Virus record (IMG/VR): IMGVR_UViG_3300029650_000167
DNA length: 38,587 nt
Origin: a virus
Lineage: Duplodnaviria; Heunggongvirae; Uroviricota; Caudoviricetes
Reading direction: 5' to 3' (one strand)
The notes beneath the pieces were generated by a model. That model was given only the letters and a program-made list of their open reading frames with translations, had not been told where the DNA came from and did not search any database. How positions within the stretch are numbered: the first letter of the stretch is position 1; the number at the start of each line of letters is the position of its first letter. Positions 4,983 through 26,843 of the stretch are shown here, one piece after another. The position numbers and the translations under genes were made by a program.

Positions 4983-5062
4983 ATTTACATCGCACTCCTC
5001 TTGTGCCATAGTAATCAGGCACTGGCAAAATCCAGTGCCGGGATTGGCGTCCCGAGTTACTA

Positions 5063-6938: not shown

Positions 6939-6960
6939 AAACAAGGCCGCGAAAGCGGCC
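6934..6960 (-). terminator. rho-independent terminator for the minus-strand membrane-protein gene
   Basis: GGCCGC-GAAA-GCGGCC hairpin; on the minus strand it is followed by TTGTTTTT. Confidence 0.5.
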
Positions 6961-6961
6961 T

Positions 6962-6973
6962 GTGACATGTCAC
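6962..6973. other. perfect 12-bp palindrome GTGACATGTCAC (copy 1 of 3)
   Basis: Identical 12-mer also at 24567 and 26832; overlaps the TGA stop of the minus-strand ORF 6970-7266. Confidence 0.5.
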
Positions 6974-7266
6974 GTCCCTTTTCTGAATGATAGCCATTCG
7001 AAAAATGATGACATTCCACCGCAGACAATAGCAAAGATGATCCCACCAAAGAAGAGAAGGCCAGCCTGCCACCACTCCCACCGCCATACATCCACAGCGC
7101 CAACCATACCAACAATCGCTCCAACAAATGGAATATAGCTCACGATGAAAGCAATGGGGGCTGCAATTATCCAGTGCAATCCCCACCATGATTCAAGCCC
7201 AGCCATAATTGCTGCCAACTGAAAAAGACCAACGACGATATAAACAATGAATCCTATAGCTTGCAT
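6970..7266 (-). CDS. small integral membrane protein
   Basis: 98 aa with three hydrophobic segments and several Trp; function unknown. Confidence 0.45.
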   Translation of the reverse strand: MQAIGFIVYIVVGLFQLAAIMAGLESWWGLHWIIAAPIAFIVSYIPFVGAIVGMVGAVDVWRWEWWQAGLLFFGGIIFAIVCGGMSSFFEWLSFRKGT

Positions 7267-7278
7267 GTAGTCACCTAT

Positions 7279-7458
7279 TTACCCAGTAAAAATAAGAGGC
7301 CTCCCCTCAATAAGGCTTGCAACAAGAACTACTCCCTGCACAACAAAGATGAACCAGCAAATAGCTTGAGTCTGAGGGTTAAGAAAATATTTGTAGCGGT
7401 CAATAAATAACAATCCACCAGAAATTATCACACTCAAAATAATTAAAAACACAACACT
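7279..7458 (-). CDS. possible small membrane protein (GTG/TTG start)
   Basis: 59-codon hydrophobic ORF in the same frame as, and immediately after, the stop of the 824-aa gene; no clear RBS. Confidence 0.2.
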   Translation of the reverse strand, partial: SVVFLIILSVIISGGLLFIDRYKYFLNPQTQAICWFIFVVQGVVLVASLIEGRPLIFTG

Positions 7459-7461
7459 TCC

Positions 7462-9936
7462 TTATTGCGGAGTGACATCCTGAGGTCGCCACCAGTATGT
7501 CTGGTTAAACTCTTTCTTCGAACGTTGCTCCATTTTACGCAAATAGCCTGGTGAAAAATACTCCTGCATCTGATTAAAGATCATGTGATCGAGAGCCGCC
7601 TTCAAGTACCAGAGATTCGCACCTGGCATCAAACCTTTCCCCAGCTTCACCAGATCACCACCAGTCTGCTCACTCTTCCCTTCCACAGCATTTAGCGGTA
7701 TGCCCTGAGCTATCTTCACTACGTCATCAACCAGACCAGCTACCGGGCCAAGCATCGACGCCAGCGCGCCGCTCCCGTACCTAGTGTGATCTGACAATAA
7801 AAAGTCACCGTAAAGGCCAAGACCACCACCTTTCAGTAGAGCACCAAGCCAAAATTTAGCAGCATCTTCTCCTGTCATCTCTCGAGGATTACGACCAGAC
7901 GCAAGGTCGTTAAGTTGTTGCGACAAAGCGCCAAGAATGGTCGTACTGGCAATAAACGTCGCAATATATGCCGCACGCCCACCAGCAGACGGCATACCCA
8001 TAGCGCGTGACCAGTGACGCATAACAACCGAGATAGGGAACGATTTAAACAGGAAAACACTTCTCGTTAATTCACCTTTCCATGTTCCACGCTGAATACC
8101 AGAACCGGTTATCAGTTGCTCACGTGCTCCCGGTGTAATAACAGCCATATCAACTTCTTCAGTTACGGCACCGAGCAGTTTACGCATTGCCTCAAATTTC
8201 ACGCGTTCAGGCTCACCAAGATGTTTAACTGCTGAATCAGGGATACGCATAATGCTTTCCGGTGTCAGCATCGTATTATTACCGTTCCCCCAGTCCTCCT
8301 GTTGCGCCAACTTCCATACGCTCCAGTCTGTGTCAGTAATCCCTTTGCTTTTCAGGATACGAAAATCAGAGTCATCGAGGCGACGAAGGTCTGGTGTCCG
8401 TGACACTACTTCTCCCAGGCTTCCCATCATGGTTACGCCATAGGCGCGCTTGTGCGCATCTGACCATGCTGTAAGCCCACTGGCACGCATTACCGCCGTT
8501 GCAGCCCAACGAGACACAGACGGCCCCATATTATCCATCGCCCAGCGGTTAACGCTGCCAAGTAGAGATTCCATCGCCAGACCAGCGCGGCGCGCCCGCG
8601 CAAGTTCTGTACGGTTCGTTGGGTCCATAGCTTCAAGCTGGTTGCGGAATAACTGGTTCATTGGAAGGTTGGTAACCTTCGCAGACAGATACATGGTTCC
8701 AAGATCAGAGAACGATGACAGCAACGCGGATCCGAGTCTGCTGGCAACCAGCCAGTTGCGGATATTGTCAGACCATCGCGCGATGTGCGGATTCGCTACA
8801 GGCTGTGTCTTTCCGGAAATAAAGTTGTACAGATTCTCTGTGTTGTTCGCCAGCCGCTCGACTTTACCGGTTTTACTCGGGTTAGCTGTTGCCGTTTCTG
8901 CCTTCACCTGATCAAGAAGAGAGCGGAAAACATGATCGGGGTTTGGACCATATGTTTCCACCAGTGCAATATCTTTACTGATACCTTCCAGGTGACCGAC
9001 CATGATTTCCCATAGAGAGCGATCGCCATAAAGTTGCTGATATTGCAGATAGGAATCTGCATCTTTGAAATGTATCTGTCGTGATGCATTACCACGGTTA
9101 GCACGTGCGCCGGAAATTCGCATTCCGGTATCAGTAAGCTTATTCAGCCCACCAGTAGCGATCGTGTTATAAGCCTCTCCAAGAAATGCAGACAACTCGG
9201 CATCGTTCATCAGTTGTCCATCGGCTCGGGTATAATATTTGCGATCCAGCTTACCTATAACATCGCTAACCCATTTATCTTTTGATACCGCCCCAACCTT
9301 TTCCATAGAATGATGTTGAGGGATCCCCCAGTTTTCGAGATAGCCAATGTCCCCACCAGCATCATTAAACCGGCGGCGCAGTAGCTCTGTCACTTCTCTC
9401 CACGCCTTAGCACCTTTTCTTGCTTTAGCATTGCCAGTATTTTGCCCCCGCATTTCATATACCAGGTCACGTACGCCAGCTTCATCTTCAAACAGACCAA
9501 AAAAGCGAGGATCAACTGCTTCGAATGCCTCCTGCAATTGACTCAATGCATAATCACGGGTGGCTTTTGTTCTGGATTCAACAGAGAGGAAATTCGATTT
9601 ACCGTCTGCATTAAAAGCAATAGTACGGTTAAGAGCGCCAAGTTTCCCATCAGCCCCTTGATAGCTATTGATAAATTTATCCAATCTCTGACGTGCGGCT
9701 ATAGTGAGGGCCACACGACGTTTCTTTAATGCCGCTTCTCGCTGTAATTCTTCAGATGCCAATTGTGCTGCACGATACAGCCGCTCTGATTCGGAAAGTT
9801 GTCGCCACGACATCGGGTCATCACGAGCAATGGAGCGCATATTTCGATAAATGCGGTCTTCAATGTTCTGTATTTCTCGCGCCGTTAACGTGCGCTGCGC
9901 CGCCTGCTGGACCGCTTGTATACATTCCTGTCTCAT
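7462..9936 (-). CDS. internal virion / ejection protein (large)
   Basis: 824 aa, last large gene of the core series before the moron island; assignment by size and synteny with T7 gp16-like proteins, no motif recognised. Confidence 0.5.
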   Translation of the reverse strand: MRQECIQAVQQAAQRTLTAREIQNIEDRIYRNMRSIARDDPMSWRQLSESERLYRAAQLASEELQREAALKKRRVALTIAARQRLDKFINSYQGADGKLGALNRTIAFNADGKSNFLSVESRTKATRDYALSQLQEAFEAVDPRFFGLFEDEAGVRDLVYEMRGQNTGNAKARKGAKAWREVTELLRRRFNDAGGDIGYLENWGIPQHHSMEKVGAVSKDKWVSDVIGKLDRKYYTRADGQLMNDAELSAFLGEAYNTIATGGLNKLTDTGMRISGARANRGNASRQIHFKDADSYLQYQQLYGDRSLWEIMVGHLEGISKDIALVETYGPNPDHVFRSLLDQVKAETATANPSKTGKVERLANNTENLYNFISGKTQPVANPHIARWSDNIRNWLVASRLGSALLSSFSDLGTMYLSAKVTNLPMNQLFRNQLEAMDPTNRTELARARRAGLAMESLLGSVNRWAMDNMGPSVSRWAATAVMRASGLTAWSDAHKRAYGVTMMGSLGEVVSRTPDLRRLDDSDFRILKSKGITDTDWSVWKLAQQEDWGNGNNTMLTPESIMRIPDSAVKHLGEPERVKFEAMRKLLGAVTEEVDMAVITPGAREQLITGSGIQRGTWKGELTRSVFLFKSFPISVVMRHWSRAMGMPSAGGRAAYIATFIASTTILGALSQQLNDLASGRNPREMTGEDAAKFWLGALLKGGGLGLYGDFLLSDHTRYGSGALASMLGPVAGLVDDVVKIAQGIPLNAVEGKSEQTGGDLVKLGKGLMPGANLWYLKAALDHMIFNQMQEYFSPGYLRKMEQRSKKEFNQTYWWRPQDVTPQ

Positions 9937-9941
9937 TTAAT

Positions 9942-11744
9942 TTAACCTCTCAAGAAACACGCCACAGCAACATCAAACAGGCTGGAATCCTGTATTGCCT
10001 GCTCACTTTCCCTGTTCGCTTCATCCAGTACTTCACGCGCACTGCGCGATTGTGGATTACCATCATCATCCAGCACGGTGATTATCATGTCAGGTGATTC
10101 AAGCAGCGAGTCTTCAGCTATACGCAGATCAATATCTCCTGCCGGATCTGCCATCATTTTTTGTTCTGTCTGTTGCAATATCTTACCGGGCTCAAAAGGA
10201 GCTACTTCTTCTGGCGTCCTGACCTCTGCTGTTTTATAGAATGAAACAGCCTGAGCATTAAGTTCACTTTCTGCCTGCTGTCGTCGTGCCAGTTCTGCTC
10301 GAGCTTCAAAAAACTGACCTCCAGGCTCGTGCGGCGCCAACGCGTTACGAGAAAATTCCAGGCGTTCTTGTGCCTGCCGGATTCGTTGGTCAATATCGCG
10401 AAGTCTGGCCTGTTTATCTGATCGAGCACGAGATAAAGCCTTACCGCTACCGGTTGGCTCTTCTGCAAGAATTTGTGCGCGCTGTTCAGTGAGATTTTCA
10501 ATAATTCGTTGGCTATTAGCGATTTCAGACTGGTAAACCTTTCTATCGCCACGCGACAAAAGCTGCGCGGCCTGTTCTTCAAGCAACCGATTTTCTATAG
10601 CGCGCGCCGTTACTCCATCATCTACAGATGACAGAGCCTCATTAACTGCCTGAGACAGCAGACTCTTGCGCCCAGGAATTTCACTGAAAGATGCAGACTC
10701 AACAATGCTGGCAACGTCTACAGGTCTCCCCTGGCTAACATCAGACATGGCTTTTCGCAGAGCCTGAATGTGCGAATTACGCGAAAGCACGTTGATCGGA
10801 ACGCCGGGAGCAATATCAATTTCAGCATGATGAGCGGCATTCGCCGCCAGTGCAGCATCAATATCAACTGGTGAAAAATTTGGTGCGCTTGTAGACTCGC
10901 CGCGAGAGTTAATAAATCTGCCGACACCACCAAACGCCACCCCAAGAACAGCATCAATAGCAATTGCCTGTCGATCCAACACATCATACTGGTTAGCCAT
11001 TTCGCTATAGCCACCATCACGAAGCGTTTTTGCAGTAAGCCCACGCTGTGCCATACCGAACGCAATATTTGTACCTGCGGCATAGGCAATATCTGGCGTT
11101 GCACGTACTGCTGTTGCTGCGGCGCGTCGCACTGAACTTTCACCCGTCCGCGCAAGCTGAGCCGCCACACCTTCCGCCAGCGCACCACCAGCACGTAACC
11201 CGAGGCTCATAGGGATCAGTGTTCCGGCACCAGCAGTAATACCCTGCACTAATCCCGCTTCCTGCGCCGTCCTGAAATCAACACCCTGTGCTGTCAACCG
11301 TTCAAACTCAGAAAAACCCTGTAGAGAAGTTACCGCCGCAGCACCTCCGACCGGACCACCGAGCGTTGTACCGACAACAGCCTGCCCGCCCATATCGAAC
11401 AACCCATAAAGGACCTGCCCGGCGGTTCCGGTTGTCGCGGCATCAGGCGTCAGCCGCTTAACCTGCTGCTCTGCTAGTTTTCTCTGCTCAGCAATGTATG
11501 AAACTGAAGTGTCATTGAGCGAGGTGTTTTCGTTAACAAGCTGAGCAATCGGGGATACGATTTTATCCATCCCTGCCCATAGCAACTGATCTGGCTTTGC
11601 CACCAGCCCGGAGTACAAACCAGACAATGCCGCTCCTACAGCATTGTCGAAAAAACCAACATCGCTGTTAAAGCCAACTGGATTTGATGCTGCTTCGTCA
11701 AGCTGCTGATTCTGGTTTACTGGATTAAGGCCAAAGTAACTCAT
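9942..11744 (-). CDS. internal virion / ejection protein
   Basis: 600 aa, Gly/Ala-rich N-terminal half and coiled-coil C-terminal half; synteny-based. Confidence 0.45.
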   Translation of the reverse strand: MSYFGLNPVNQNQQLDEAASNPVGFNSDVGFFDNAVGAALSGLYSGLVAKPDQLLWAGMDKIVSPIAQLVNENTSLNDTSVSYIAEQRKLAEQQVKRLTPDAATTGTAGQVLYGLFDMGGQAVVGTTLGGPVGGAAAVTSLQGFSEFERLTAQGVDFRTAQEAGLVQGITAGAGTLIPMSLGLRAGGALAEGVAAQLARTGESSVRRAAATAVRATPDIAYAAGTNIAFGMAQRGLTAKTLRDGGYSEMANQYDVLDRQAIAIDAVLGVAFGGVGRFINSRGESTSAPNFSPVDIDAALAANAAHHAEIDIAPGVPINVLSRNSHIQALRKAMSDVSQGRPVDVASIVESASFSEIPGRKSLLSQAVNEALSSVDDGVTARAIENRLLEEQAAQLLSRGDRKVYQSEIANSQRIIENLTEQRAQILAEEPTGSGKALSRARSDKQARLRDIDQRIRQAQERLEFSRNALAPHEPGGQFFEARAELARRQQAESELNAQAVSFYKTAEVRTPEEVAPFEPGKILQQTEQKMMADPAGDIDLRIAEDSLLESPDMIITVLDDDGNPQSRSAREVLDEANRESEQAIQDSSLFDVAVACFLRG

Positions 11745-14254
11745 TGCGGAATATCTCCGGAGAATCTCTGACGCTTCTGTGTCAGATCAAGAACAACGGG
11801 AGAACCATCATCTTTTAGCAGATAACCAGTACCAAGTTTCACCAGGTACTGACTATCGCCGTAACTTTGCAAACCATACTGACCAGGCGGTGTTTTTATC
11901 CCTGTGCCAACAACTTGTTCATTCCAAGCCTGATTAACCTGCTTATCGAATTGCTCTGCAGACATTCCCCACGGCAAAAGAACATTCCCCATTCCGTTAT
12001 AGTCATGCACGCCACCTGTAGCTACGTTAACAGCCTGTTTCCAGATATCATTGTCAATTTCGCCTGATACCACGCCTTTTTTCGCCATCACACCAGCGTA
12101 ATAGTCCTTTGCGATCTCGTATGCCATTGATGCCCCCTGAGCATCACCAGCAAATGCATTCTTCACCATGTCAGAAAACTCAAGGCGAAGATCAGCATCT
12201 TTAGGCATCGGAATACCTTTCGCGTCATCAGTACCTTTACGAGCCGCCGCGCCAGCAAGAATTGTCTGCGCAGCGGTTTCTGGAGACACGGAAACATCCG
12301 GATTAAACCAGTTTTTTTCTGCCAAAATACCACCTGGCTTATCCATCAGTATCCCGGCAACGGCAGCAGATGGAGCGTTGGCACTGATCTGCTGTAGTGC
12401 TGACATATACACCTGCCCACCACCAGTGCTCTGCCTGATGGTATCGAGATATGCTGCCTGTTGGGAAACGGGCGCATCACGAAAGAAAACACCGATCTGA
12501 TTGGCCTCGTCTTTGGAAAAGAACGTCAGTGGAGTGCCATATGACTTAGCAAGGTCACTGACCTGAGCAGCACGCAAGGCAACGCTCTGTCCAAAGTTAT
12601 CCTTATTGCTCATGTCGATAGGCTTTGCCTGTCCGGCGGCAAGAGAGAACTGTACAGGATCAGCCTGTCGCTGCTTTATCACCTGACTTGCAGCCGACAC
12701 AACGTTGTCATAAAGAGCGGCTCGTGCCGCATAACCCTCCCCTGTCTCACCAGTATCCGGGCGTAATTGCTCAACATATGCTGTAATGCTGCTTGTCGGC
12801 ATGTTGCGGAAAGAGCCTATATACTGTCCGGCGATTTGCGTATTTCTGAACTCGGTATATCGCAGGTTTCCTTCTCTTACTCCATAAGCTGCAATAAAAT
12901 CAGCCTCACCAGGTGGGTTAGGAAATTCAACGCCACGCATATACGCAGCTGTCGCATCGCGAACCTGGCTGTCAATCATCGTTTTATATTCAGCCTGCTG
13001 CTGCCGACGCAGTTGATCCGCCTGTCGCATAAAACTTGCCTGCGCCTCAGGAGATGCCGCATCGAATGCTGCATTACCGGTATAGCGTTTGGTGTTGGTT
13101 GGAATTGTTGATAAACCAAGTGCTGCACTGACACCAGCAGTTAACTGCTGATCACTGTATGGCTGGCTACCGTTCTCATGATGGATAATGGCTGCACAAA
13201 GCGCCTTCAGGGTATCAGGATTAGATGCATCGAGAGGCTCATCAGCAGAAACGCCAAGTTGTTCGCACACTGCTTTGATATACGACATAGTGTCATTTTT
13301 ATCAGCAGGCGGTGCCCAGCGATTAATTATCTCGCTGACGGTATCAATACCCTGCCTCTGATACGACATCAGGTTCCGCCCTAATGCACGAATCCCGTGT
13401 TCAGGTGTTTCGAATTTAGCAAATCGACCATCATCACCGGTCTGGCCTACCCACGGATTAGTTTTGCTGTATTCGAGATTTCCTGGGTTATTGTTGCGTA
13501 TGCCACGGGCACGCTCGGAAGAGTCACTATCTGCTACAGCACGGCGAGCTCCAGCAGCAGTATCACTTAACTCGCCATTACTTTGGATGAATGCGGTCGC
13601 ATTGTTTGCCGACCACTGGGACAATGCGGCATCAGCAACCTTCTCTTTAAACTCGATTTTCTTGGCCTGGATTTGCTCGTCGCTCCAGCCATGCGCAATG
13701 CCGTAATCCTCAATTTGCTGGAAAGTTTGCTTATTAGCCAATACGTATGCGGCGTTGTCGCCATACAATGCTGCGGCATTTTTACCATTGTTCAGCAGCG
13801 TCGCCTGAAACTGGCCTTCTTCGTAGGCATTTATTTGCCCTATCTCGTGCCGCCCGGCCTGCGTAGTGAACTGAATGCGCTGCTGCTGCGCCTGCTGCAT
13901 GAAAGCATTACGAGCCTGTTCATCCGGCAGCGACATAGCCAATTGTTCGACCTGAGCATCAAACTGCTGCGTATACTCATGGCCTTTTCCAATAGCATTT
14001 TTCCCTTTCAGGTTAAGCAATCCTGTTTCAGGATTATTCAGCAAATCACTGCTTATCTGACTGAGGTTAAGAGATGCCTCCTGAGCCAAGGCAATATTGA
14101 CACGCTGTTTTGCCTGCCCAAAAACATCAATTGCCTCTTCCCCTGCCAGAACAAAAGCATCACCAATACCTGGCTGAGAAAACGTCTGCAAGCCTGCTGA
14201 CTGAACTCCACGGCTCTCAACCTGACGTCCGGATACTGTTGGTACGACTGGCAT
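11741..14254 (-). CDS. internal virion protein (T7 gp15-like by position)
   Basis: About 837 aa from ATG at 14254, which overlaps the upstream stop as TAATG with SD GGAGG; the track ORF starts further upstream at 14329. Confidence 0.45.
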   Translation of the reverse strand: MPVVPTVSGRQVESRGVQSAGLQTFSQPGIGDAFVLAGEEAIDVFGQAKQRVNIALAQEASLNLSQISSDLLNNPETGLLNLKGKNAIGKGHEYTQQFDAQVEQLAMSLPDEQARNAFMQQAQQQRIQFTTQAGRHEIGQINAYEEGQFQATLLNNGKNAAALYGDNAAYVLANKQTFQQIEDYGIAHGWSDEQIQAKKIEFKEKVADAALSQWSANNATAFIQSNGELSDTAAGARRAVADSDSSERARGIRNNNPGNLEYSKTNPWVGQTGDDGRFAKFETPEHGIRALGRNLMSYQRQGIDTVSEIINRWAPPADKNDTMSYIKAVCEQLGVSADEPLDASNPDTLKALCAAIIHHENGSQPYSDQQLTAGVSAALGLSTIPTNTKRYTGNAAFDAASPEAQASFMRQADQLRRQQQAEYKTMIDSQVRDATAAYMRGVEFPNPPGEADFIAAYGVREGNLRYTEFRNTQIAGQYIGSFRNMPTSSITAYVEQLRPDTGETGEGYAARAALYDNVVSAASQVIKQRQADPVQFSLAAGQAKPIDMSNKDNFGQSVALRAAQVSDLAKSYGTPLTFFSKDEANQIGVFFRDAPVSQQAAYLDTIRQSTGGGQVYMSALQQISANAPSAAVAGILMDKPGGILAEKNWFNPDVSVSPETAAQTILAGAAARKGTDDAKGIPMPKDADLRLEFSDMVKNAFAGDAQGASMAYEIAKDYYAGVMAKKGVVSGEIDNDIWKQAVNVATGGVHDYNGMGNVLLPWGMSAEQFDKQVNQAWNEQVVGTGIKTPPGQYGLQSYGDSQYLVKLGTGYLLKDDGSPVVLDLTQKRQRFSGDIPQ

Positions 14255-14799
14255 TATAATCCTCCGGGTAATCTGGTTCCTGCTGCTGCCCCGATTGGCG
14301 CAGGAGTGCTTTGAGTAAACGGACTCCACGTCCCACCAAACATCTGGTACGCACCGTATGCCTTCAGAGGCGCAGTGAGCAATGTTGTTGCTGCTCCCAC
14401 ATTCCCCTGTTTACGGGCTGAACTGGCTTCTGCTTTATAGTTAGCAGCCTGCATCTGATAACCGTAAGCCTCGCGTTGCGCATTATTCACCGTCGTCAGA
14501 GAATCAAGAGCGCCAAACTGAGCTGTGTCGCCAAATATATCCAGCGCGTTACCGGTAGATAAATCGGCGCCGGTCGCCCCCATTGTCGCCGCCTGTGTAC
14601 CAAGCCGCTGTCGGGTCTCTCTGCGCCGTTGCTCAGCTTCAGCGTTACCTCTGTTTATTGCATCATTTGCCTGAGCTGTGGCTATATCTGCGTTCGCTTC
14701 TGCAACCTTCGAGGCATACTTTCCCTGTTGGTACTGGGTGTATGCCTGAATGCCACTCATGGCGAGCATTGCGCCACCAGCAATAACCGGATCGCACAT
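14254..14799 (-). CDS. internal virion protein (T7 gp14-like by position)
   Basis: 181 aa, Ala/Gln-rich; TAATG coupling to both neighbours. Confidence 0.4.
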   Translation of the reverse strand: MCDPVIAGGAMLAMSGIQAYTQYQQGKYASKVAEANADIATAQANDAINRGNAEAEQRRRETRQRLGTQAATMGATGADLSTGNALDIFGDTAQFGALDSLTTVNNAQREAYGYQMQAANYKAEASSARKQGNVGAATTLLTAPLKAYGAYQMFGGTWSPFTQSTPAPIGAAAGTRLPGGL

Positions 14800-15263
14800 T
14801 ATTTTCTCTCCATGTGAAATCTGTGGAAATTAAGACCAAGAGCACCATAAGGCGCGGCTTCTTCAAGCCTGAATCCAAGCCAGTGCAGCCATGCTTTGGC
14901 AACATGGTTTCGCTCGTCGACATAGTTTTCCAGGCGCGGATAAACTGCCAGCATCTGCTGCAATACAGGGCGGCAGTGGCGAAGAAATGTCTTCTGATAT
15001 TTTTCGATACGGCTGGTTCCGACCAGCCAGGGCGTACCATTGCCACCGATCATTGACGCCGGAGATACGCCAAACATGGTTACCAGTTCTCCGTTCGCAA
15101 ATCCTGACCAGGCCATAGTCGCAGTACGCAGACCAACACGCAGCGCATCTTCGGTAGTCATCAGTGATACCGCATACAGTTCGTCAATATCAGCCTGACG
15201 AACATCCGGCAAAATCATCTGAAGATGCTCTTCGGTTGCGGGAATAATTTGAACATCGATCAT
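14799..15263 (-). CDS. virion protein (T7 gp13-like by position)
   Basis: 154 aa; start overlaps the upstream stop (TGATG). Confidence 0.4.
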   Translation of the reverse strand: MIDVQIIPATEEHLQMILPDVRQADIDELYAVSLMTTEDALRVGLRTATMAWSGFANGELVTMFGVSPASMIGGNGTPWLVGTSRIEKYQKTFLRHCRPVLQQMLAVYPRLENYVDERNHVAKAWLHWLGFRLEEAAPYGALGLNFHRFHMERK

Positions 15264-18662: not shown

Positions 18663-18678
18663 ATACACTCCTGCAATA

Positions 18679-18696
18679 AAGGGGCCGAAGCCCCTT
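18679..18696 (-). terminator. GC-rich hairpin with UUCG loop, terminator/attenuator-like
   Basis: Minus-strand transcript reads AAGGGGC-UUCG-GCCCCUU followed by UAUUG; lies between two structural genes. Confidence 0.4.
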
Positions 18697-18712
18697 GTCT
18701 GATTCGCGAGGC

Positions 18713-19048
18713 TTACACGCCCAGTTCTTTACGCTTATCTGCGATCTTCTCGCGGAGCGTTTCGGCTTTAGCGTTATGGTGTGGCTTCTCGTTAAAGAGC
18801 AATTCGTACTCTTCACGGAGCTTATCCAGTTCACCATCATCTGACACATCGTTGATGATTTTGGTGCTGGTTGCTGCCATTGACACCTTTCCTGCAACTT
18901 TTGCTTTTGCCTGTCTGGCTGCATCGTTAACAGGTTCCAGTGCGCTACCAGGCTCACCTTCGTATTCGATTTCTGCCCCCTCCGGCCACAGAGTGTTATG
19001 GATATGAGAGAGGCGCAGAACGCGGTATCTTGGTTTCTCACCTGACAT
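18713..19048 (-). CDS. small virion protein (possible capsid accessory)
   Basis: About 111 aa from ATG 19048 with SD AGGTGA; charged, coiled-coil-like C-terminus. Confidence 0.4.
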   Translation of the reverse strand: MSGEKPRYRVLRLSHIHNTLWPEGAEIEYEGEPGSALEPVNDAARQAKAKVAGKVSMAATSTKIINDVSDDGELDKLREEYELLFNEKPHHNAKAETLREKIADKRKELGV

Positions 19049-19058
19049 CGATATCACC

Positions 19059-19496
19059 TTAACCAGTTACTTTTGAGCGGATCGGATACGGCGTATTGGC
19101 ATCAACATCAAGACTGATACCAGCAGTGAATTCGCCAGCCGTTAGTGGGCCAGTTGCGACGGAGTAGTTAACACGCAGATATCGCTGAACACCGGCAGGC
19201 ACCTTTGCAGAAACAACTCGTTTACCTGCTGTCAGGGTAGCCTTTGCCAGTGCGCCACTATCATAAATAGTGGACCATGAGCTGTTATTCTCACTCGTCT
19301 GCAACTGGATGTTTACAGTTGCCTCACCACTTGCCGTGGCGGCTTCGTTAACCAGCACCCAAAACTCAAGCGGATAACCCACGCCGATATCGCGACGGTT
19401 TCCATCAATTGGACCGAGATCGATTACGTCAGTAGAAGCCGCGGTATTCGTAACCGCCTGAGCTTCGGAGAACATCAACAGTTTGTCGGTGATCAT
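19059..19496 (-). CDS. capsid decoration/auxiliary protein (putative)
   Basis: 145 aa, Thr/Ser/Ala-rich beta-like sequence directly after the major capsid gene; SD GGAG. Confidence 0.4.
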   Translation of the reverse strand: MITDKLLMFSEAQAVTNTAASTDVIDLGPIDGNRRDIGVGYPLEFWVLVNEAATASGEATVNIQLQTSENNSSWSTIYDSGALAKATLTAGKRVVSAKVPAGVQRYLRVNYSVATGPLTAGEFTAGISLDVDANTPYPIRSKVTG

Positions 19497-19511
19497 CTTC
19501 TTTCTCCATTA

Positions 19512-19531
19512 GTGGGTCTGTTACGACCCAC
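19512..19531 (-). other. intergenic stem-loop after major capsid gene
   Basis: GTGGGTC-N6-GACCCAC 7-bp stem between capsid stop and the next RBS. Confidence 0.35.
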
Positions 19532-19547
19532 AGGTTAATAACAGGCG

Positions 19548-20540
19548 TTACACCACGCGGGCTTCTGTTTCCAGAAGCGCATCAGTTTCACGGATTGGTA
19601 CACCACGGAATGACGTCCACCACTCGCCTTCAGTCTCTTTTACGCTAATCGCCAGAGATGTTTTCTCCAGAGACTGCAAATCAAGAGCCTGGCCTACAGT
19701 GCGGTTCATGTAGAACACCGGGCGACCCATGCCACGGTTTGGAATGCGATGCAGTGCTTTAACCATCAACTTCGCAATATTTGCGGCAGAGGAAGGTTCT
19801 GAAAGATTGCTGACATCGATGTTTGCAATGCGAACAACATAACGCCAGTCACGCAGAGCAAGTCCGTTGTCCCATTTGTAATGGGTACGGTAGCCTTCGT
19901 ACTTGCCGCCATTAGCATCTTCCAGTGTCACCTGGCCTTTATCTTCCATCTGAATGCCAGCCTTCTGCCCTTTCGGGAAGATGCCATGCACGGTGTTTTC
20001 GCCCCACACCACTAACCAGATTGAGGTGTTATCTGTACCCGTGCCACCAGCATCAATGATGTTCTGAGCATTACCTGCAGACAGGCTGGAATAGCGGGAG
20101 GACAGTCCCATAAACTGCTGAGGGTTAACGCTGGAATCACCATAAAACAGCGTCTGCGCCATCTGCTGATTCATCGCTTCAATAAATGCGCGGTCTTCAG
20201 ACAGGCGGAATTCGGCGGTATTGCCGTTCAGATCAGCCAGTGACTTATCGACTTCAGCATAGGTTTCCAGCATGCCAACGGAATCGGTTACCTGCACTGT
20301 GGTTGATTTGCTTGGCTGTACGCCATAGTTCAGCAAACGCCAGGTAGCTGAAGGTAAACCAGAACGAATGGTGGTTCGGTGTCCGGTAGGAAGGTTCCCT
20401 TCGACAAAAGGCATATCCTGAAGGATCGGGTTAGTTTGACCGAGAAGCTCGATAATCTTATCGACTTTCCCGTTTGGATCGACGCGCTTACCCCAGTCAG
20501 CCAGCGTTAGCGCAGTTAAGCCTTTAACAGCCATTGTCAT
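19548..20540 (-). CDS. major capsid protein
   Basis: 330 aa, directly after the scaffold gene and before decoration-like genes; size and position typical of a podovirus major capsid protein. Confidence 0.7.
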   Translation of the reverse strand: MTMAVKGLTALTLADWGKRVDPNGKVDKIIELLGQTNPILQDMPFVEGNLPTGHRTTIRSGLPSATWRLLNYGVQPSKSTTVQVTDSVGMLETYAEVDKSLADLNGNTAEFRLSEDRAFIEAMNQQMAQTLFYGDSSVNPQQFMGLSSRYSSLSAGNAQNIIDAGGTGTDNTSIWLVVWGENTVHGIFPKGQKAGIQMEDKGQVTLEDANGGKYEGYRTHYKWDNGLALRDWRYVVRIANIDVSNLSEPSSAANIAKLMVKALHRIPNRGMGRPVFYMNRTVGQALDLQSLEKTSLAISVKETEGEWWTSFRGVPIRETDALLETEARVV

Positions 20541-20548
20541 TTCCTCTC

Positions 20549-21244
20549 TTAGTTGCCATAGAGCACTTCGGCCGCACTACGCTGGCCTTCATTACCACCG
20601 GTGACCATGCCATCTTCAGACATCGCCTTTCCGATTTTCACGAACGTTTTGACCAGATCAGGGTGATTACCCAGCCCGGTGGTGTTCAGATATTCTTTGA
20701 GTTCAGGTGTCCCGAACTGGTCAAGCGCACGCTGTGCGGCGCTAAGGTTAGAAATCAACTTGTCGCCACCGATTTCTTTGTCAGCTTTTACATCCGCAGC
20801 CCACTGCTCGGTTGTTTTCTGCCAGGCTTCTACCTGGCGCTGCTGAACACCTGCCAGAATCTTCGGATAAGCATCAACCAGCTTTTGCGCTTGCTCGTTG
20901 GTCAGGTTTAGTTCTCGCGCCACCGGCTCGAATTCCTTCAACGCTTCTGTATCCAGCTCTACGCCTTCGGCAGCCTGAAACTCGTACTTCTCAGGCGCAC
21001 CCTCTGGTTTATCGCCGTCCTTTTTTTCATCCTGCTTATCGTTTTCAGGATTTTTGTCATCAGCAGGTTTATCGCCATCAGCAACAGGTTGTGACTTATC
21101 ACCTTCCGGTTGTGATGGATCACCAACTGGAGCATGGTTATCACCTGCAGGCGCTGACGGTTCTGACGCAGCCGGAGCTGCTCCACCATCGACTGGTTGC
21201 TCATTGCAAAGACGGCGATACAGCAAACGCTCAAATAAATTCAT
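20549..21244 (-). CDS. scaffolding protein
   Basis: About 231 aa from ATG 21244 with SD AGGAG; highly acidic low-complexity N-terminal half (Asp/Glu/Lys/Pro-rich), helical C-terminal half. Confidence 0.55.
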   Translation of the reverse strand: MNLFERLLYRRLCNEQPVDGGAAPAASEPSAPAGDNHAPVGDPSQPEGDKSQPVADGDKPADDKNPENDKQDEKKDGDKPEGAPEKYEFQAAEGVELDTEALKEFEPVARELNLTNEQAQKLVDAYPKILAGVQQRQVEAWQKTTEQWAADVKADKEIGGDKLISNLSAAQRALDQFGTPELKEYLNTTGLGNHPDLVKTFVKIGKAMSEDGMVTGGNEGQRSAAEVLYGN

Positions 21245-21246
21245 GA

Positions 21247-21543
21247 TCACTCCTGTTCACTGGCCTCTTTGGCCATCTTCAAATACTGTTCAGGGCAATG
21301 CGCCATAACGCGCTGAAACAGTTCCAGCGCCAGATTGCGTTGCCCCTCATTAAATGCCATTGCCATAGCGTCCATCGGTGAGATAGCGGAAAACACACGG
21401 CCTTTCTCCAGCACCGACCAGACAACGCGACGCCCCTGTTCACTGCTCATGACAAAGCGAATGTCATCAATTTCACGCTGCGCCATGTCACGTTGCTTAC
21501 GGGCGTTTTCTTCTTTCAGTTGATCGTCTTCGTAATCTGTCAT
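21247..21543 (-). CDS. hypothetical head-morphogenesis protein
   Basis: 98 aa, ATGA-coupled to the portal stop. Confidence 0.4.
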   Translation of the reverse strand: MTDYEDDQLKEENARKQRDMAQREIDDIRFVMSSEQGRRVVWSVLEKGRVFSAISPMDAMAMAFNEGQRNLALELFQRVMAHCPEQYLKMAKEASEQE

Positions 21544-23219
21544 TGTGATTGCCCACCCTGACCACTAACTGCATTCGCCATAGCTGACAACACACTCGGA
21601 TCCGAAGTTTTAGCTTCGCTTAGCGTCTTGGCCCCCTGTGCCGCCGCCATCCCCATCGCCATCATTTGTTGCTGCTGTTGTTGCTGTGCCCGTTGCTGGC
21701 GAGCCTGCTCAACCTGTTCCTGCGGAACAATGACGGTTGGAGACACTCCGGACATATCAGCGAATGCATCGATCGCCTGATCAACATTGAGTTTGTCGAG
21801 AGCTTCTGGTTTCGCTTGCGCAAGTTGACCAATGAAGTTGACCGTAGACGCCAGACTGGACAGGCCGATAGACTTCTGCGCCTGAGCCATGACAGAAATG
21901 TATTCGACCTTCAGGGGCATACCTTCCATCGCGTCAGGCGGTGGCGGCAGCATGTTTTTACGCACCATCATCGAGAAAGCGCGGTCAATGAGAGGATTAA
22001 GACATTCGTCGTTCAGACGCTCCAGAACCGGCCCCAACATCAGAAGTTTTTCTTCTTTCATTTCGATCACCGCTTCAACAGGCATCGAGCGGGTATTGAT
22101 GTTCTGCAACATCATGAACAGATCGACAAAGTAGGCGCTGTTAATGATTTGGCGGGTGTCCTGAATGTCTGCTACCAGATCTGCTGTACTGGGGTTAACC
22201 AGATAAGCAGGCCTGAAACCATCCTGACCAGTAATCTGATCGATATACGTGATGTCGCCAGGAAGAAGGGAGGCGCGCTGATTCTTGAGGGAAGTCGGAG
22301 CAACCATCGGCGGATTGGTGGCTTTATCAATCAACTGCGACTTGCGCTTCTGGAGAAGCTGCAATGCCTTAACAGGTCCAAGCGCCAGCATACCCGGGCA
22401 TGATGATCCATAAACATCTTCGCCGTTAACTTCCCAGCGCGGAGCCATAATTGGAAACTCATCGAATCCGGACTCACGCAACAACTTGTCGTTATCGCCA
22501 CCAACCTCGTAATAAACCGATTTGAATGGCTTGTTCTTGCTATCCAGCTTCGATGTATCGCGGTCAATGTTCGGGTAAACCGAATGCATCACTTCAATCC
22601 ACTTCTCGTAGGTGCCGCTTTCCCACATGCTTTTTACGGATTCGCTGACGTTATTTAGCCCGAACTCCTGAACAAGCTGACGAACAGTCATAGAGAACTT
22701 GCGAAAACAGGTGTCCACACTGCCACGAGGTGAGTTAGCTAGGTAGTAACTGCCTATCGGGAATGGCATTGTGCGAATGATGTCCTCGTCATCCTCCAGC
22801 ACTGCCATTGCACCAGTGCTGTATGTGCCGAGGCTTCCGTATAACTGCGGCAGAGACTGATAGAGATTCGACTTATTGAACATATCGTTCATGCGGTTCT
22901 GCACCGCCTCAAGCCACAACTTAACAGGGCCATAATCCATCATTTCAGGATCTGGCGTAGCCAGGCGAAACCACGGACGCGCGGGGCTTGTGATGCCTGA
23001 CATCATGCCGCTGGCGAGAGTGCGCGCCGCCATAGTCCCGGTCGAATCAATAATGCGTGTATTGCGTCGATCGTTACGGTTGACCTCAGAAGTCAGAAAG
23101 CGGGAACCACGTGGGTTGATGTAATCACTCAACTCGCGCCAGTGCGGCTCGAACGACTGACGCTCGCTTTCAAGTTGTGCGAACTGTTTGTTCAATCGCT
23201 CTTTAGTTGTTTCCGCCAT
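21540..23219 (-). CDS. portal protein
   Basis: 559 aa directly downstream of terminase in the late operon; Gln-rich C-terminal tail. Confidence 0.7.
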   Translation of the reverse strand: MAETTKERLNKQFAQLESERQSFEPHWRELSDYINPRGSRFLTSEVNRNDRRNTRIIDSTGTMAARTLASGMMSGITSPARPWFRLATPDPEMMDYGPVKLWLEAVQNRMNDMFNKSNLYQSLPQLYGSLGTYSTGAMAVLEDDEDIIRTMPFPIGSYYLANSPRGSVDTCFRKFSMTVRQLVQEFGLNNVSESVKSMWESGTYEKWIEVMHSVYPNIDRDTSKLDSKNKPFKSVYYEVGGDNDKLLRESGFDEFPIMAPRWEVNGEDVYGSSCPGMLALGPVKALQLLQKRKSQLIDKATNPPMVAPTSLKNQRASLLPGDITYIDQITGQDGFRPAYLVNPSTADLVADIQDTRQIINSAYFVDLFMMLQNINTRSMPVEAVIEMKEEKLLMLGPVLERLNDECLNPLIDRAFSMMVRKNMLPPPPDAMEGMPLKVEYISVMAQAQKSIGLSSLASTVNFIGQLAQAKPEALDKLNVDQAIDAFADMSGVSPTVIVPQEQVEQARQQRAQQQQQQQMMAMGMAAAQGAKTLSEAKTSDPSVLSAMANAVSGQGGQSQ

Positions 23220-23233
23220 TTCAATGACTCCGG

Positions 23234-23440
23234 TTACTGACCAAGCAGCGTTTTACCGCTGGTCTTAGCGGTTGATGTGTCGCCCTGAGAACCGGTAAGC
23301 AGCGTAGAACTACGACCAGCAGCAGCGCGACGGCGACGAGTTTCTTCGTCGCGGGCATCAACAACGGCGGCATCCTGCTCCTGTGGTGCTGCCTGAACTT
23401 CTGGTGTTGCAGGCACTGATGGTGAGCTACCCATGCACAT
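23234..23440 (-). CDS. small Ser/Thr/Ala-rich protein upstream of portal
   Basis: 68 aa with SD GGAG 8 nt upstream; low complexity. Confidence 0.3.
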   Translation of the reverse strand: MCMGSSPSVPATPEVQAAPQEQDAAVVDARDEETRRRRAAAGRSSTLLTGSQGDTSTAKTSGKTLLGQ

Positions 23441-23508
23441 ATCAATGACTCCGTACGCAATTAAATTATTACCAATTTAACCATATATGATTTATTTATC
23501 GTAGATAG

Positions 23509-23545
23509 TTGACATTTAACGCGCGAATTATTACCTTTCAGGTAA
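23509..23545 (+). promoter_or_regulatory. promoter (-35 TTGACA) with overlapping operator palindrome TTACC-TTTCA-GGTAA
   Basis: Consensus TTGACA at 23509-23514, 16 bp later the perfect operator motif (23531-23545) occupies the -10/+1 region; points toward the tRNA. Confidence 0.5.
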
Positions 23546-23867
23546 CTAAAGAGTTCATTCCGGTTACTAACCTGACTGGCCTGTCGTTAAATTGAACAGG
23601 TGGAGTGAGCTTTTATTTTGAGCAGTACGGCGTATGGCACATGCGACGATAGCGGTCTGGATACGTTTAAGTGGCACCCTCCCTTGCTCGGGCAAACGAA
23701 CCAGGTAGCCGGAATGTGCAAGTCGAGCGGTTTTATTCCGCGCACGGGGATTCACCATCCCGGCGATTCGGTGTGACGCCTCGGAAGAGACGAGGGTACA
23801 ACGATGAGAGCATTTATGGAGCCGCGACAAAGTGTGGCGCCTTAACAGGCTAAGTGCTCTCAGCGTT

Positions 23868-23944
23868 GTGGCATTAGCTCAGTTGGACAGAGCAACCGCC
23901 TTCTAAGCGGTTGGTCGCAGGTTCGAATCCTGCATGCCACGCCA
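23868..23944 (+). tRNA. tRNA-Arg (anticodon UCU, reads AGA)
   Basis: Hand-folded cloverleaf: acceptor GTGGCAT/ATGCCAC, D-arm GCTC/GAGC, anticodon stem ACCGC/GCGGT with loop CTTCTAA, T-arm GCAGG-TTCGAAT-CCTGC, discriminator G and encoded CCA. Confidence 0.85.
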
Positions 23945-23987
23945 GAATCACGCCTAAGGACCGTGATACCAGAAGTTCCAGGTGCTT

Positions 23988-24029
23988 GGCGGTGATAGTT
24001 TCCCTTGAAGGACTATCACCGCCCTTTTT
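23988..24029 (+). terminator. rho-independent terminator after tRNA
   Basis: 12-bp stem GGCGGTGATAGT/ACTATCACCGCC followed by CTTTTT. Confidence 0.75.
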
Positions 24030-24107
24030 ACAGCAGGACGCCATTGCGATGACTTCATGCTGTAAACCCGTACAGCCACGGAAGGCATAACTCATTGCTT
24101 CCAGTTC

Positions 24108-24131
24108 GCCCGGTTCGCCGGGCATTTTTTT
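24108..24131 (+). terminator. second rho-independent terminator/attenuator
   Basis: GCCCGG-TTCG-CCGGGC hairpin followed by seven T, ending 11 nt before the SD of ORF 24143. Confidence 0.65.
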
Positions 24132-24142
24132 AAGGTGAGATC

Positions 24143-24562
24143 ATGAAGACAATTGATATGTTGGCTAAGTATCTAAATGAATGGCCATTAAAATATTCTC
24201 GTATCGTTCAGGCTGAAGACTGCATTTTTTATGGCGTTTTTGCTGATAATGAAATGCATTACGAAGTAATTCAGAGTGAGGGACTGGCCGGGTTAACTCT
24301 TAGCGAAGACCATGGTACTAGCGTTACGTTCCATGACTGGATAACAGCACAACGTTCTGAAATGGAAAAAGGCGATGTGTTTGATATTTCTCGCGCTGTT
24401 TACGCTAAAGCAAAAAGTGATAATGATTACATGAGCGAACACTTATACAACATGAAGTTACAATGCCTGCATGCGGCGCTTATTCAGAATGGGCACTTCG
24501 ATAAAACAAGTGCCATCAATATTGCGGAAGCCATCAACGCTGGATTTAATGCCATTAAATAA
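24143..24562 (+). CDS. hypothetical protein, AT-rich orphan moron
   Basis: 139 aa with SD AAGGTGAG; opposite orientation to flanking terminase/portal genes; low GC. Confidence 0.5.
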   Translation: MKTIDMLAKYLNEWPLKYSRIVQAEDCIFYGVFADNEMHYEVIQSEGLAGLTLSEDHGTSVTFHDWITAQRSEMEKGDVFDISRAVYAKAKSDNDYMSEHLYNMKLQCLHAALIQNGHFDKTSAINIAEAINAGFNAIK

Positions 24563-24566
24563 CACC

Positions 24567-24578
24567 GTGACATGTCAC
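24567..24578. other. perfect 12-bp palindrome GTGACATGTCAC (copy 2 of 3)
   Basis: 5 nt after the stop of ORF 24143-24562 and before its terminator. Confidence 0.5.
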
Positions 24579-24582
24579 AAAC

Positions 24583-24609
24583 AGCCAGCCGATGAGCTGG
24601 CTTTGTTTT
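24583..24609 (+). terminator. rho-independent terminator
   Basis: AGCCAGC-N6-GCTGGCT hairpin followed by TTGTTTT. Confidence 0.65.
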
Positions 24610-24652
24610 ATCCTCATCAGAGGATATCAACGACATTATCCCCACCAGCGGA

Positions 24653-26128
24653 TTAAGCATAGGGATCGTAATCTGTGATGGCCTTGCCTTGCTGGTTCTG
24701 CTGCCCGGGAATTCGCAGACGCTTCGACACAGGGAAAGCAAACGTCAGCAGTAGCGCATCGCCTTTACCCGGCGAACGCCCAAGTCGTTCTTTGATATCT
24801 TCCTTCGGTTCGATAACGATTTTACCGTCCACGCGAACTTTGTACTCTGCCGCCGACAGATCGTCCGCTGTTTCCTGGTCATCCAGCATCCCGCCCAACC
24901 TCAGCCATGTCTTGCATGAGTTGAACATCTCCCCGCGCTTGTTGAGCATCTGAGGGTCAGTTGACGCACCACCGAACGGAACAAGTTGCCATGTGCGCCC
25001 CCAGCCGTCACCGATTGACTTCAGACCGGTTCCGTAACCGAAGTCGATGAACACCGCGTCAGCCTGATACTGGTCTTCAAAGTCAGCGATACGCTTCGCC
25101 ATAATCAGATCGTCAGTGGTCTTGTTGCCAGTCCATAGCACCTTACTATGCAACCCCTGCCGCAGGTATATCACCGCGTCATCAACGCCTGAATATGCCG
25201 GGTCAACACCGATTATCACCGGAGCATGAGCCACCTGCGCAGCGGTTACCACCCGTTTCATTGCCTCATCAGTAAGACCGGTAGGGATAAACTGCAATTC
25301 AGATGCATCAGGGAATATGCCGCGCACACGGATTTTAACGAAGTCGCTGTCTTCCCCGTAGTCATCAACCCATTTCTGCAACTGCTGTTTGTTAGTACCT
25401 TCCACCGTCCGGCTGTCAATCTGCGCAGTTTTCCAGCGGTGTTTGTATTTGCGGAAACATTCGCGAAAACGCCCGGTATTACGTGTAGGGTTTCCGAACG
25501 CCACCCAGATAATCTCAGTGTCTTCGTCCGTAAGCGCACCCTCAGCAACTTCCCACACCAGATCCGCAATGTTCGACGCTTCATCGAATACCACGATGAT
25601 GCGTTTGCGCTCGTTGTGTAGTCCGGCGAATGCCTCAGTGTTGTGCTCAGACCAGGGGATTGCGTCAGCTCGCCACCGCTTGTCGTGCCCAGGATCATTG
25701 CTGTACATCGCGGTAGCGGTACAGGTAAACCAGTCTTTCGTGATGGCAAGGTTCGACCACTTGATAATTTCCGGCCAGGTCTTCGTTCGTAGCTGGTTGT
25801 CGGTGTTGGCGGTCACCACAACCTTACAATCCTCGCAAGTGGACATGCCCCAGTTGATCAGCATTGAGATGAATGCGGATTTACCAATACCATGACCAGA
25901 AGCACGTGCCAGCATAAGCGGCTGATAGCGCGTCTCTGGATTCTGCAGGTGATCACGTATCTCTCGGAACGCATCAGCCTGCCACTTACGTGGACCGGTG
26001 GCATGTGCTAATTCAGTCCCCTCTTCCCCCCACGGGAACGCATAGAGGGCATAGCCAAGCGGATCGTGAGTGAACCCTGCAATATCCTCGATCAACTGCT
26101 CTTCAGGAGATAACGCTGTATCTGTCAC
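24653..26128 (-). CDS. terminase large subunit
   Basis: 491 aa with Walker A-like GHGIGKS near the N-terminus and acidic nuclease-like C-terminal region; GTG start overlapping the small-subunit stop. Confidence 0.85.
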   Translation of the reverse strand: MTDTALSPEEQLIEDIAGFTHDPLGYALYAFPWGEEGTELAHATGPRKWQADAFREIRDHLQNPETRYQPLMLARASGHGIGKSAFISMLINWGMSTCEDCKVVVTANTDNQLRTKTWPEIIKWSNLAITKDWFTCTATAMYSNDPGHDKRWRADAIPWSEHNTEAFAGLHNERKRIIVVFDEASNIADLVWEVAEGALTDEDTEIIWVAFGNPTRNTGRFRECFRKYKHRWKTAQIDSRTVEGTNKQQLQKWVDDYGEDSDFVKIRVRGIFPDASELQFIPTGLTDEAMKRVVTAAQVAHAPVIIGVDPAYSGVDDAVIYLRQGLHSKVLWTGNKTTDDLIMAKRIADFEDQYQADAVFIDFGYGTGLKSIGDGWGRTWQLVPFGGASTDPQMLNKRGEMFNSCKTWLRLGGMLDDQETADDLSAAEYKVRVDGKIVIEPKEDIKERLGRSPGKGDALLLTFAFPVSKRLRIPGQQNQQGKAITDYDPYA

Positions 26129-26721
26129 TGATTACCATCCTGACGTTCTTTGAGTCGCTTCCTGGCTGCTGCTATGCGATCAGCAATTGTCACATTCACA
26201 TTAACATCCAGACGTTCTTTGAACGCGTTGACATCAACATGCTTACCAATCAGTTCTAGGTTCTTCACCTTGTCAGGCCATTTAATTTTTTTGAGGATTG
26301 TCTCTATCGAATCCTCGTTCATGTTCATGATGGTCGATGACAGATCAAAGCCACTAAGCGTAGTGCGCCAGATTTTCGGCCACTCACGGATTGGTTTAAG
26401 GCTCCCATCGTCGTTGAGGATGTCGATCACGTCCATCTGGTCGATCTCCACCAGGCGCATGAGAACGTAATCAGCACTGACGCGCATTCGTTTGTTGCGC
26501 TCCTCCATCAACTCGGCAATCCGTTTTTGAATGCGTTCATCGCGCATCATGACGCTGGCTTTAACTGCCGCTGTATTTGGGGAGAATCCTGCGTTAATCG
26601 CAGCCTGAGTCTGGTTTTCAGGCGTTTTGATGTATGACTGGCAATAAGCCTCCTGCATTGCTGTGAGCGGCTTAAATTGCGTTGATTTGCGTTTATAGGT
26701 TTTAGGTTCAGCAGGCATCAT
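26125..26721 (-). CDS. terminase small subunit
   Basis: About 198 aa from ATG 26721 (SD GGTGG); basic N-terminal region; the track ORF start at 26799 would translate the operator and terminator region. Confidence 0.6.
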   Translation of the reverse strand: MMPAEPKTYKRKSTQFKPLTAMQEAYCQSYIKTPENQTQAAINAGFSPNTAAVKASVMMRDERIQKRIAELMEERNKRMRVSADYVLMRLVEIDQMDVIDILNDDGSLKPIREWPKIWRTTLSGFDLSSTIMNMNEDSIETILKKIKWPDKVKNLELIGKHVDVNAFKERLDVNVNVTIADRIAAARKRLKERQDGNQ

Positions 26722-26738
26722 AACCACCGTGGTAATTG

Positions 26739-26753
26739 TTACCGTTGTGGTAA
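26739..26753. promoter_or_regulatory. operator-like palindrome TTACC-GTTGT-GGTAA upstream of terS
   Basis: Perfect motif 18 bp upstream of the terS start, flanked by additional GGTAA/TACC half-sites. Confidence 0.5.
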
Positions 26754-26760
26754 TAATACC

Positions 26761-26790
26761 ATGCAAAATAAAGCCGCCATAGTTGGCGGC
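26761..26790 (-). terminator. rho-independent terminator between early-left operon and late operon
   Basis: On the minus strand GCCGCC-AACTAT-GGCGGC followed by TTTATTTTG. Confidence 0.55.
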
Positions 26791-26831
26791 AGTATTCAAA
26801 CCCCATCAAATTCATCATGCATAATCTACTC

Positions 26832-26843
26832 GTGACATGTCAC
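26832..26843. other. perfect 12-bp palindrome GTGACATGTCAC (copy 3 of 3)
   Basis: Overlaps the TGA stop of ORF 26840-27181, about 90 bp upstream of the late operon. Confidence 0.5.

Follow-up and report, generated by a model that had tools for sequence, protein, structure and literature searches.

A 12-bp palindrome at three operon ends of an epsilon15/phiV10-type prophage is linked to the gene of a predicted ribbon-helix-helix protein

Introduction

The virus record IMGVR_UViG_3300029650_000167 (Caudoviricetes; 38,587 nucleotides, the whole of which is called the window here) carries the perfect 12-bp palindrome GTGACATGTCAC three times, each time at the 3' end of a gene. What recognizes this element, and what might it do at these positions? 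The window is an epsilon15/phiV10-type podovirus prophage of the genus Uetakevirus. Phages of this type are used as reporter and typing phages for O157 and Salmonella, and to our knowledge their late-gene control and operon insulation are not understood. Analysis of the sequence suggested that the palindrome is most likely the DNA-binding site of a small uncharacterised phage protein, whose gene ends within one of the three copies. Site and gene form a real and strongly conserved protein-operator module, which is apparently undescribed: the literature that we searched held no relevant description of the exact 12-mer or of its five clade variants, and the paper on the ZX5 regulatory proteins covers the repressor, the antirepressor and the integrase, not the regulator gene at 26840-27178.

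Three copies of the palindrome close three transcription units

An exact match search of the window located GTGACATGTCAC at 6962-6973, 24567-24578 and 26832-26843, bearing out the earlier note, which had reported three identical and non-random copies. By chance, 0.002 occurrences of any given 12-mer would be expected in 38.6 kb. Among the 12 palindromic 12-mers of the window, GTGACATGTCAC alone recurs, and the expected number of palindromic 12-mers present in triplicate is approximately 8e-6. The repeat unit is exactly 12 bp, because the flanks differ among the three copies and are not conserved. Two matches with two mismatches (at 21091 and 21480) are at chance level. Per 4.6 Mb, random expectation is about 0.3 exact copies of GTGACATGTCAC and about 4 sites in which the same half-sites are separated by any 2 bp (N2-spaced sites).

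The window was opened at attP, and the phage plus strand corresponds to the window minus strand. The three copies, the open reading frames (ORFs) beside them and the adjoining terminators are as follows.

26832-26843: site A (copy 3), GTGAC-AT-GTCAC; holds the TGA stop of the gene at 26840-27178 (minus strand)
26840-27178, minus strand: gene of the proposed site-binding protein, 112 amino acids from the ATG at 27178; PHROG 536; predicted ribbon-helix-helix (RHH) protein
26773-26790, minus strand: intrinsic terminator that ends the early-right operon; next come a Rep-operator-like site (26739-26753) and the probable start of terS
24567-24578: site B (copy 2), with the terL terminator on one side and the antisense accessory gene's 3' end on the other
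24583-24602, plus strand: terminator hairpin between site B and terL, with a strong U tract toward the accessory gene and a weak one toward terL
24143-24562, plus strand: accessory ('moron') ORF of 139 amino acids, PHROG 4846, with 4 nt between its end and site B
6962-6973: site C (copy 1), which closes the morphogenesis operon, holds the TGA stop of the ORF at 6970-7266 (minus strand) and adjoins a terminator
6970-7266, minus strand: ORF of 98 amino acids, PHROG 3075 (function unassigned), last gene of the late structural operon, with its stop in site C
6944-6961, minus strand: intrinsic terminator that ends the morphogenesis operon, immediately next to site C

In the phage orientation, the last early-right gene has its stop at site A, which is followed by a terminator 41 nt downstream, a Rep-operator-like site and terS. 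Site B comes after terL and the terL terminator and adjoins the antisense accessory gene at that gene's 3' end, while site C ends the morphogenesis operon together with its terminator, with the antisense antirepressor operon beyond. The terminase, morphogenesis and tailspike units begin at Rep-operator-like sites (26739, 23531 and 4588, in that order), and the GTGACATGTCAC palindromes stand where the early-right, terminase and morphogenesis units end. The placement at gene 3' ends likewise held on inspection: the TGA stop codons of two minus-strand ORFs, 6970-7266 and 26840-27181 (the ORF of the regulator gene), fall within copies 1 and 3, respectively, and the first base of copy 2 lies 5 nt past the last base of the plus-strand ORF 24143-24562. 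An intrinsic-terminator hairpin adjoins every copy (3/3), and along the terminated transcript the order is stop codon, palindrome, hairpin and U tract in all three. Through this fixed order, each site borders its terminator on the side where this is weak for a polymerase arriving from the opposite direction.

The sites are conserved in close relatives

Comparison with related phages, proposed earlier as a check on the motif, revealed the same 12-mer at the three equivalent positions in Salmonella phage epsilon15 (39612, site A; 2142, site B, after terL; 19517, site C), which shares approximately 78% DNA identity with the window in conserved genes. Phage phiV10 has two copies (2262, site B, after terL; 19493, site C) and a third with one mismatch, split across the ends of the record. 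A Klebsiella relative keeps all three positions with AT, AC or GG as the central dinucleotide, and the site after terL is present in a Klebsiella phage as GTGACACGTCAC.

Protein-based scans of IMG/VR gave the 80 closest loci, of which 78 were informative for sites B and C; the wider diversity described below was drawn from separate queries and a collection with one genome per species. Site C is exact in 71 and carries one mismatch in 7 of the informative relatives, being absent from none. Site B is exact in 57, has one mismatch in 6 and is absent from 15. The 12-mer at site C stays while its surroundings vary on both sides: where the window has ORF 6970-7266 upstream, other relatives carry different ORFs, the sequence downstream changes as well, and one relative lacks the terminator. 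At site B the relatives diverge from the first base past the palindrome into at least six alternative cassettes, one of which is the accessory ORF 24143-24562. These comparisons support the earlier placing of copies 1 and 2 at insertion boundaries: variable antisense cassettes begin there. No relative lacking an accessory insertion at site B was found, the shortest gap between terL and the portal gene being 1,045 nt. We also sought an epsilon15-type relative that had lost the regulator gene, in which correlated loss of the sites might be seen; the candidate, a Klebsiella phage, carries both gene and sites. A separate observation concerns Klebsiella phage ST11-OXA245phi3.2, in which a UmuD-like gene and a LexA box (25140-25540) lie between the gp49 homologue with its site and terS, and a fourth site, GTGACGGGTCAC, lies within a tailspike-like gene.

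The motif accompanies one gene family in unrelated phages

A tblastn search with the product of ORF 26840-27178 identified homologues in quite different phages, each with the general motif GTGAC-N2-GTCAC beside the gene. In the Pectobacterium myovirus ZF40 (gp22, 66% identity), the 14-mer TGTGACATGTCACA occurs three times, once 2 nt past the stop of the gene. In N15 (gene 46, 36% identity) and in 49 N15-like contigs, the stop codon lies within GTGACTGGTCAC; N15 has two further copies, and all three N15 positions are conserved in N15-like contigs. Yersinia P2-like phages carry GTGACGCGTCAC at the stop of the gene, and Vibrio and Photobacterium phages have GTGAC-(AC/GC/AG/AA/CC)-GTCAC at or near the gene and 10-19 nt upstream of terS. 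The linkage spans podo-, myo- and siphoviruses, including P2-like and N15-like phages, and all members of the gene family that were seen belong to phages or prophages of Enterobacterales, Vibrionales and Aeromonadales.

With one genome per species, a site lies within 10 kb of the gene in 34/35 loci and contains the stop codon in 23/35; across 273 gene-carrying loci, the stop codon lies within the site in about 250. In Aeromonas phage 59.1 the site is inside the 5' part of the gene, and in a Morganella prophage it stands just upstream. The general rule is a linkage of gene and site within approximately 370 nt, with stop-codon overlap as the commonest arrangement. In other phages, sites also occur without terminators and inside genes.

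The spacing of the half-sites is also specific. Across 4.2 Mb of such loci, the N2 spacing accounts for 453 sites (139 unique contexts), while spacers of N0, N1 and N3-N8 give 0-4 sites each, with about 4 expected. The half-sites are invariant, and the central 2 bp are free and often asymmetric, which indicates symmetric recognition of DNA by a dimer rather than pairing in RNA. The TGTGA/TCACA half-sites of the CRP type that had been proposed do not describe the motif, whose conserved unit is GTGAC-N2-GTCAC with a spacing of strictly 2; the flanking T and A are not conserved in the window. A CRP/FNR-type site (TGTGA-N6-TCACA, or 5-bp half-sites with the spacing of that family) was set aside on these grounds.

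Several single loci deserve mention in their own right. Vibrio phage K308 has, besides three N2 sites, one true 13-mer (GTGACACCGTCAC, 19491-19503) of the type of the host matS site described below. A 52-kb contig from an alphaproteobacterial assembly (Limoniibacter endophyticus) carries an N15-type gene with GTGACTGGTCAC at its stop, which suggests an N15/phiKO2-like plasmid prophage or a contaminant. In Serratia/Symbiopectobacterium prophages (L370-L372), a LexA-box-like TACTGT-N8-ACAGT follows the stop of the gene in place of the site, and copies of GTGACATGTCAC lie 5-9 kb away on both sides of the gene.

The linked protein is predicted to be a ribbon-helix-helix DNA binder

The gene at 26840-27178 is the last of the early-right operon. 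Its family, PHROG 536, includes epsilon15 gp49, phiV10 p55, N15 gp46 and ZF40 gp22. Public data contain about 1,000 sequence clusters of this family, every one annotated as hypothetical, and it has no Pfam family. A first AlphaFold2 model from a shallow alignment was weak (predicted local distance difference test score [pLDDT] of 71.8), and a Foldseek search of the PDB with that model gave no significant match. A deeper alignment of 119 sequences resolved the fold, with a pLDDT of 89.7. The resulting model consists of a basic helix (residues 5-18) with the invariant residues R8 and R13, an extended segment (19-29), two helices (30-42 and 52-74) and a Cys-rich, zinc-ribbon-like C-terminal tail with the invariant residues C79, C82 and C99. 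The beta-strand, helix, helix core of the RHH (CopG/Arc/MetJ) fold is present in this monomer model. The product is thus confidently predicted to be an RHH DNA binder with a Cys-rich tail.

Profile searches gave no Pfam or NCBIfam match for the window protein itself. Divergent family members match RHH_1 with 19.1 bits, below the cut-off of 20.5 (E = 0.0013), and RepB-RCR_reg over the same region with E = 0.034. No sequence homology to MatP or to any PDB chain was detected, and PADLOC returned no match.

Other control elements in the window

A second palindrome, TTACC-N5-GGTAA, occurs ten times in the window, at 4588-4602, 4968-4982, 6029-6043, 23531-23545, 26739-26753, 30459-30473, 30521-30535, 32834-32848, 33546-33560 and 33608-33622. 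The epsilon15 record annotates matching sites (ATTACC-N5-GGTAAT) as bound by the 'repressor', and copies in the window lie upstream of terS, of the gp3/portal operon, of the tailspike gene and of the ant and immunity regions. From this placement, the prophage repressor may directly control each late unit. Taken from the TTG at 26799 (minus strand), as in the phiV10 annotation, the longest terS ORF spans the upstream hairpin as well as the Rep-operator-like site; translation probably begins at the ATG at 26721 (ATGATGCC), in agreement with the epsilon15 annotation.

A tRNA-Arg gene (anticodon TCT; 23868-23944, plus strand) lies in the variable stretch that separates terL from the portal operon; a terminator (24108-24123) and then the accessory ORF 24143-24562 follow it. 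At the other end of the morphogenesis operon, matches at the Rfam gathering level to the isrK Hfq-binding RNA and the C4 antisense RNA (5019-5095 and 5120-5203, plus strand) lie directly upstream of the Bro-N/Ant gene 5237-5962. This arrangement is an antirepressor operon of the P1 immI/N15 immA style under antisense-RNA control, and it ends at copy 1 of the palindrome. A LexA-box-like sequence, CTGTATAAATATACAG, lies at 4642-4657.

Possible functions of the sites

We consider it fairly probable that the three palindromes are operators of the phage's own small RHH protein (26840-27178) and act at operon borders. The protein would bind the symmetric 12-bp site either as a single dimer or as a dimer of dimers; gene and site A would be inherited as one unit because the stop codon of the gene lies inside the site. 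The sites in this phage type stand at the close of three transcription units (early-right, terminase and morphogenesis). Every late unit, namely terminase, morphogenesis and the tailspike unit after site C, starts at a Rep-repressor operator, and every site lies on that side of a terminator hairpin where the U tract is missing. Given this position at hairpins closing three units, the bound protein would most likely act on RNA polymerase at the operon borders, either as a roadblock or insulator against convergent and read-through transcription or by modulating read-through. Bridging of the sites would be an equally possible second action. The analysis shows the motif with its specific spacing, its association with one gene family in unrelated phages, its conserved positions and the RHH-like fold; binding of the site by the gp49/gp46-family protein, and any effect of binding, are what we infer. 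The variable contexts of the sites in other phages and the loss of site B from some relatives (15/78) leave the functional step unproven. A regulator site, one of the roles that the earlier note had listed, is the best reading of the palindrome.

The site bears a close resemblance to two host chromosome-organising sites. The matS site is a 13-bp sequence, GTGAC-RNY-GTCAC (PMC3603311, PMC6907758), and the SlmA site is the 12-bp palindrome GTGAGTACTCAC (PMC3116907, PMC3020112). The sites might be bound by host MatP or SlmA, which organize the chromosome, with the phage recruiting or titrating that protein for a purpose such as MukBEF unloading, divisome tethering or a block of division, and with the linked phage protein as a cofactor or unrelated. 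The matS half-sites set in a 12-bp SlmA frame, the restriction of the gene family to phages of Enterobacterales, Vibrionales and Aeromonadales, and the description of MatP as the sequence-specific MukBEF unloader in one report (PMC8669397) would fit this proposal. We regard it as unlikely: the spacer is invariably 2 and never takes the matS value of 3 (N3: 2 in 4.2 Mb and 0 in the window), position 5 of the half-site differs from the SlmA site, prophages avoid true matS (PMC3603311), and the tight linkage to one phage gene family would be unexplained. It is similarly improbable that the module represents a phage-borne counterpart or antagonist of MatP/matS and SlmA/SBS (the SlmA-binding sites), in other words a new class of genome-organisation module and not an ordinary transcription factor. 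The RHH protein would then bridge or mark one to four phage sites and organise, pair or insulate phage DNA, or it would disturb the work of MukBEF, the divisome or nucleoid occlusion. It would do so in just the bacterial clades that rely on these host systems.

The remaining explanations draw on the surroundings of single copies. The split of site B relatives, right behind the palindrome, into at least six cassettes (several with just 4-7 nt in common), the mosaic flanks on both sides of site C and the failure to find an insertion-free relative are all consistent with a palindrome that is mainly a recombination boundary or linker, at which accessory cassettes are exchanged or which insertion left as a scar. 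Twelve base pairs are, however, too short for homologous exchange, no recombinase is associated, and the spacing-specific conservation with a free central dinucleotide indicates recognition by a protein. A mere scar, as had been suggested, leaves the same motif and gene family in unrelated backbones unexplained, including backbones without these cassettes and sites inside coding regions. Recombination is thus quite unlikely as the main role and would be at most secondary. We find it very unlikely that copy 3 is part of a late promoter, with GTGACA as the -35 element, a Q-like loading site and a terminator arranged as in lambda pR'-tR', and that the adjacent gene encodes an antiterminating Q analogue. 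The gene is the last early gene and lies directly upstream of terS, phiV10 and epsilon15 have no other annotated late regulator, and site A shows a 9/12 promoter-like match (GTGACA-18-CATGAT) ahead of the terminator. Such matches, however, occur at chance frequency (3 found, 4.0 expected), site B lies downstream of its terminator in the late direction, and the Rep operator between the terminator and terS points to a separate promoter there. The label 'Q-position gene' in the earlier note described position only: the gene has no Q-family match, and ZF40 and N15 carry it beside Q-like genes of their own. A lambda-type Q antiterminator with a qut site was rejected on the lack of a Q-family match and the chance-level promoter-like match at site A. 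A role in RNA, as a hairpin or processing signal aiding termination or 3'-end stability, would suit the order of stop codon, palindrome, hairpin and U tract at all three window copies, but is highly improbable. The 12-mer folds as RNA with just -1.2 kcal/mol (z = -0.03), its half-sites are invariant and never covary, no Rfam family matches at the palindrome positions, and other phages have sites without terminators and inside genes.

Our analysis proposes a concrete protein-operator pair at three operon ends. The module is also found in N15-like, P2-like, ZF40-like and marine Vibrio phages, and a widespread 'hypothetical protein' could thereby gain an annotation. Because the site is nearly identical to matS and the SlmA site, while prophages avoid true matS, the question arises whether temperate phages mimic the signals that organise host chromosomes or interfere with them.

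Comparison with known systems

The half-sites of the phage site are those of matS, and its 12-bp frame is the one seen in the SlmA site. In comparison to MatP/matS, the phage spacer is 2 bp instead of 3 bp, so the sites are not 13-bp matS sites; N3 (matS-type) sites number 0 in the window even with one mismatch allowed, and 2 in the 4.2 Mb of loci. The protein is phage-encoded with its gene linked to the site, shows no sequence homology to MatP (hhalign probability 0.1) and lacks the four-helix bundle, and is thus not a MatP homologue. SlmA sites and the phage sites are both 12-bp palindromes of the GTGA....TCAC frame with identical outer 4 bp; they part at positions 5 and 8, which are C/G in the phage site and G/C in SBS. 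SlmA is a TetR-family helix-turn-helix protein, whereas the gene linked to the phage sites is RHH-like and nothing TetR-like is linked to them. The N15 SopB centromeres IR1-IR4 (GTGCGACC-NN-GGTCGCAC; PMC7205306) are likewise palindromes with a 2-bp centre scattered over a phage genome, but have another, longer sequence and a ParB-type binder. The GTGAC-NN-GTCAC sites of N15 are three separate loci with a sequence different from the IR elements, which rules them out as Sop partition centromeres.

The nearest kind is that of the RHH regulators with short repeat operators, such as Arc, CopG, AmrZ, ArtA of pSK41 and plasmid omega. The phage protein differs from these in an additional basic helix at the N terminus that carries invariant arginines, in a long helix and in its Cys-rich tail, and no Pfam family matches it. 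Its operator does not lie in its own promoter but usually overlaps its own stop, with 1-3 more copies kilobases away. The module is therefore of a known general kind, an RHH regulator with a palindromic operator, in an unusual layout that places the operator in the gene's own stop codon and satellite sites at operon ends.

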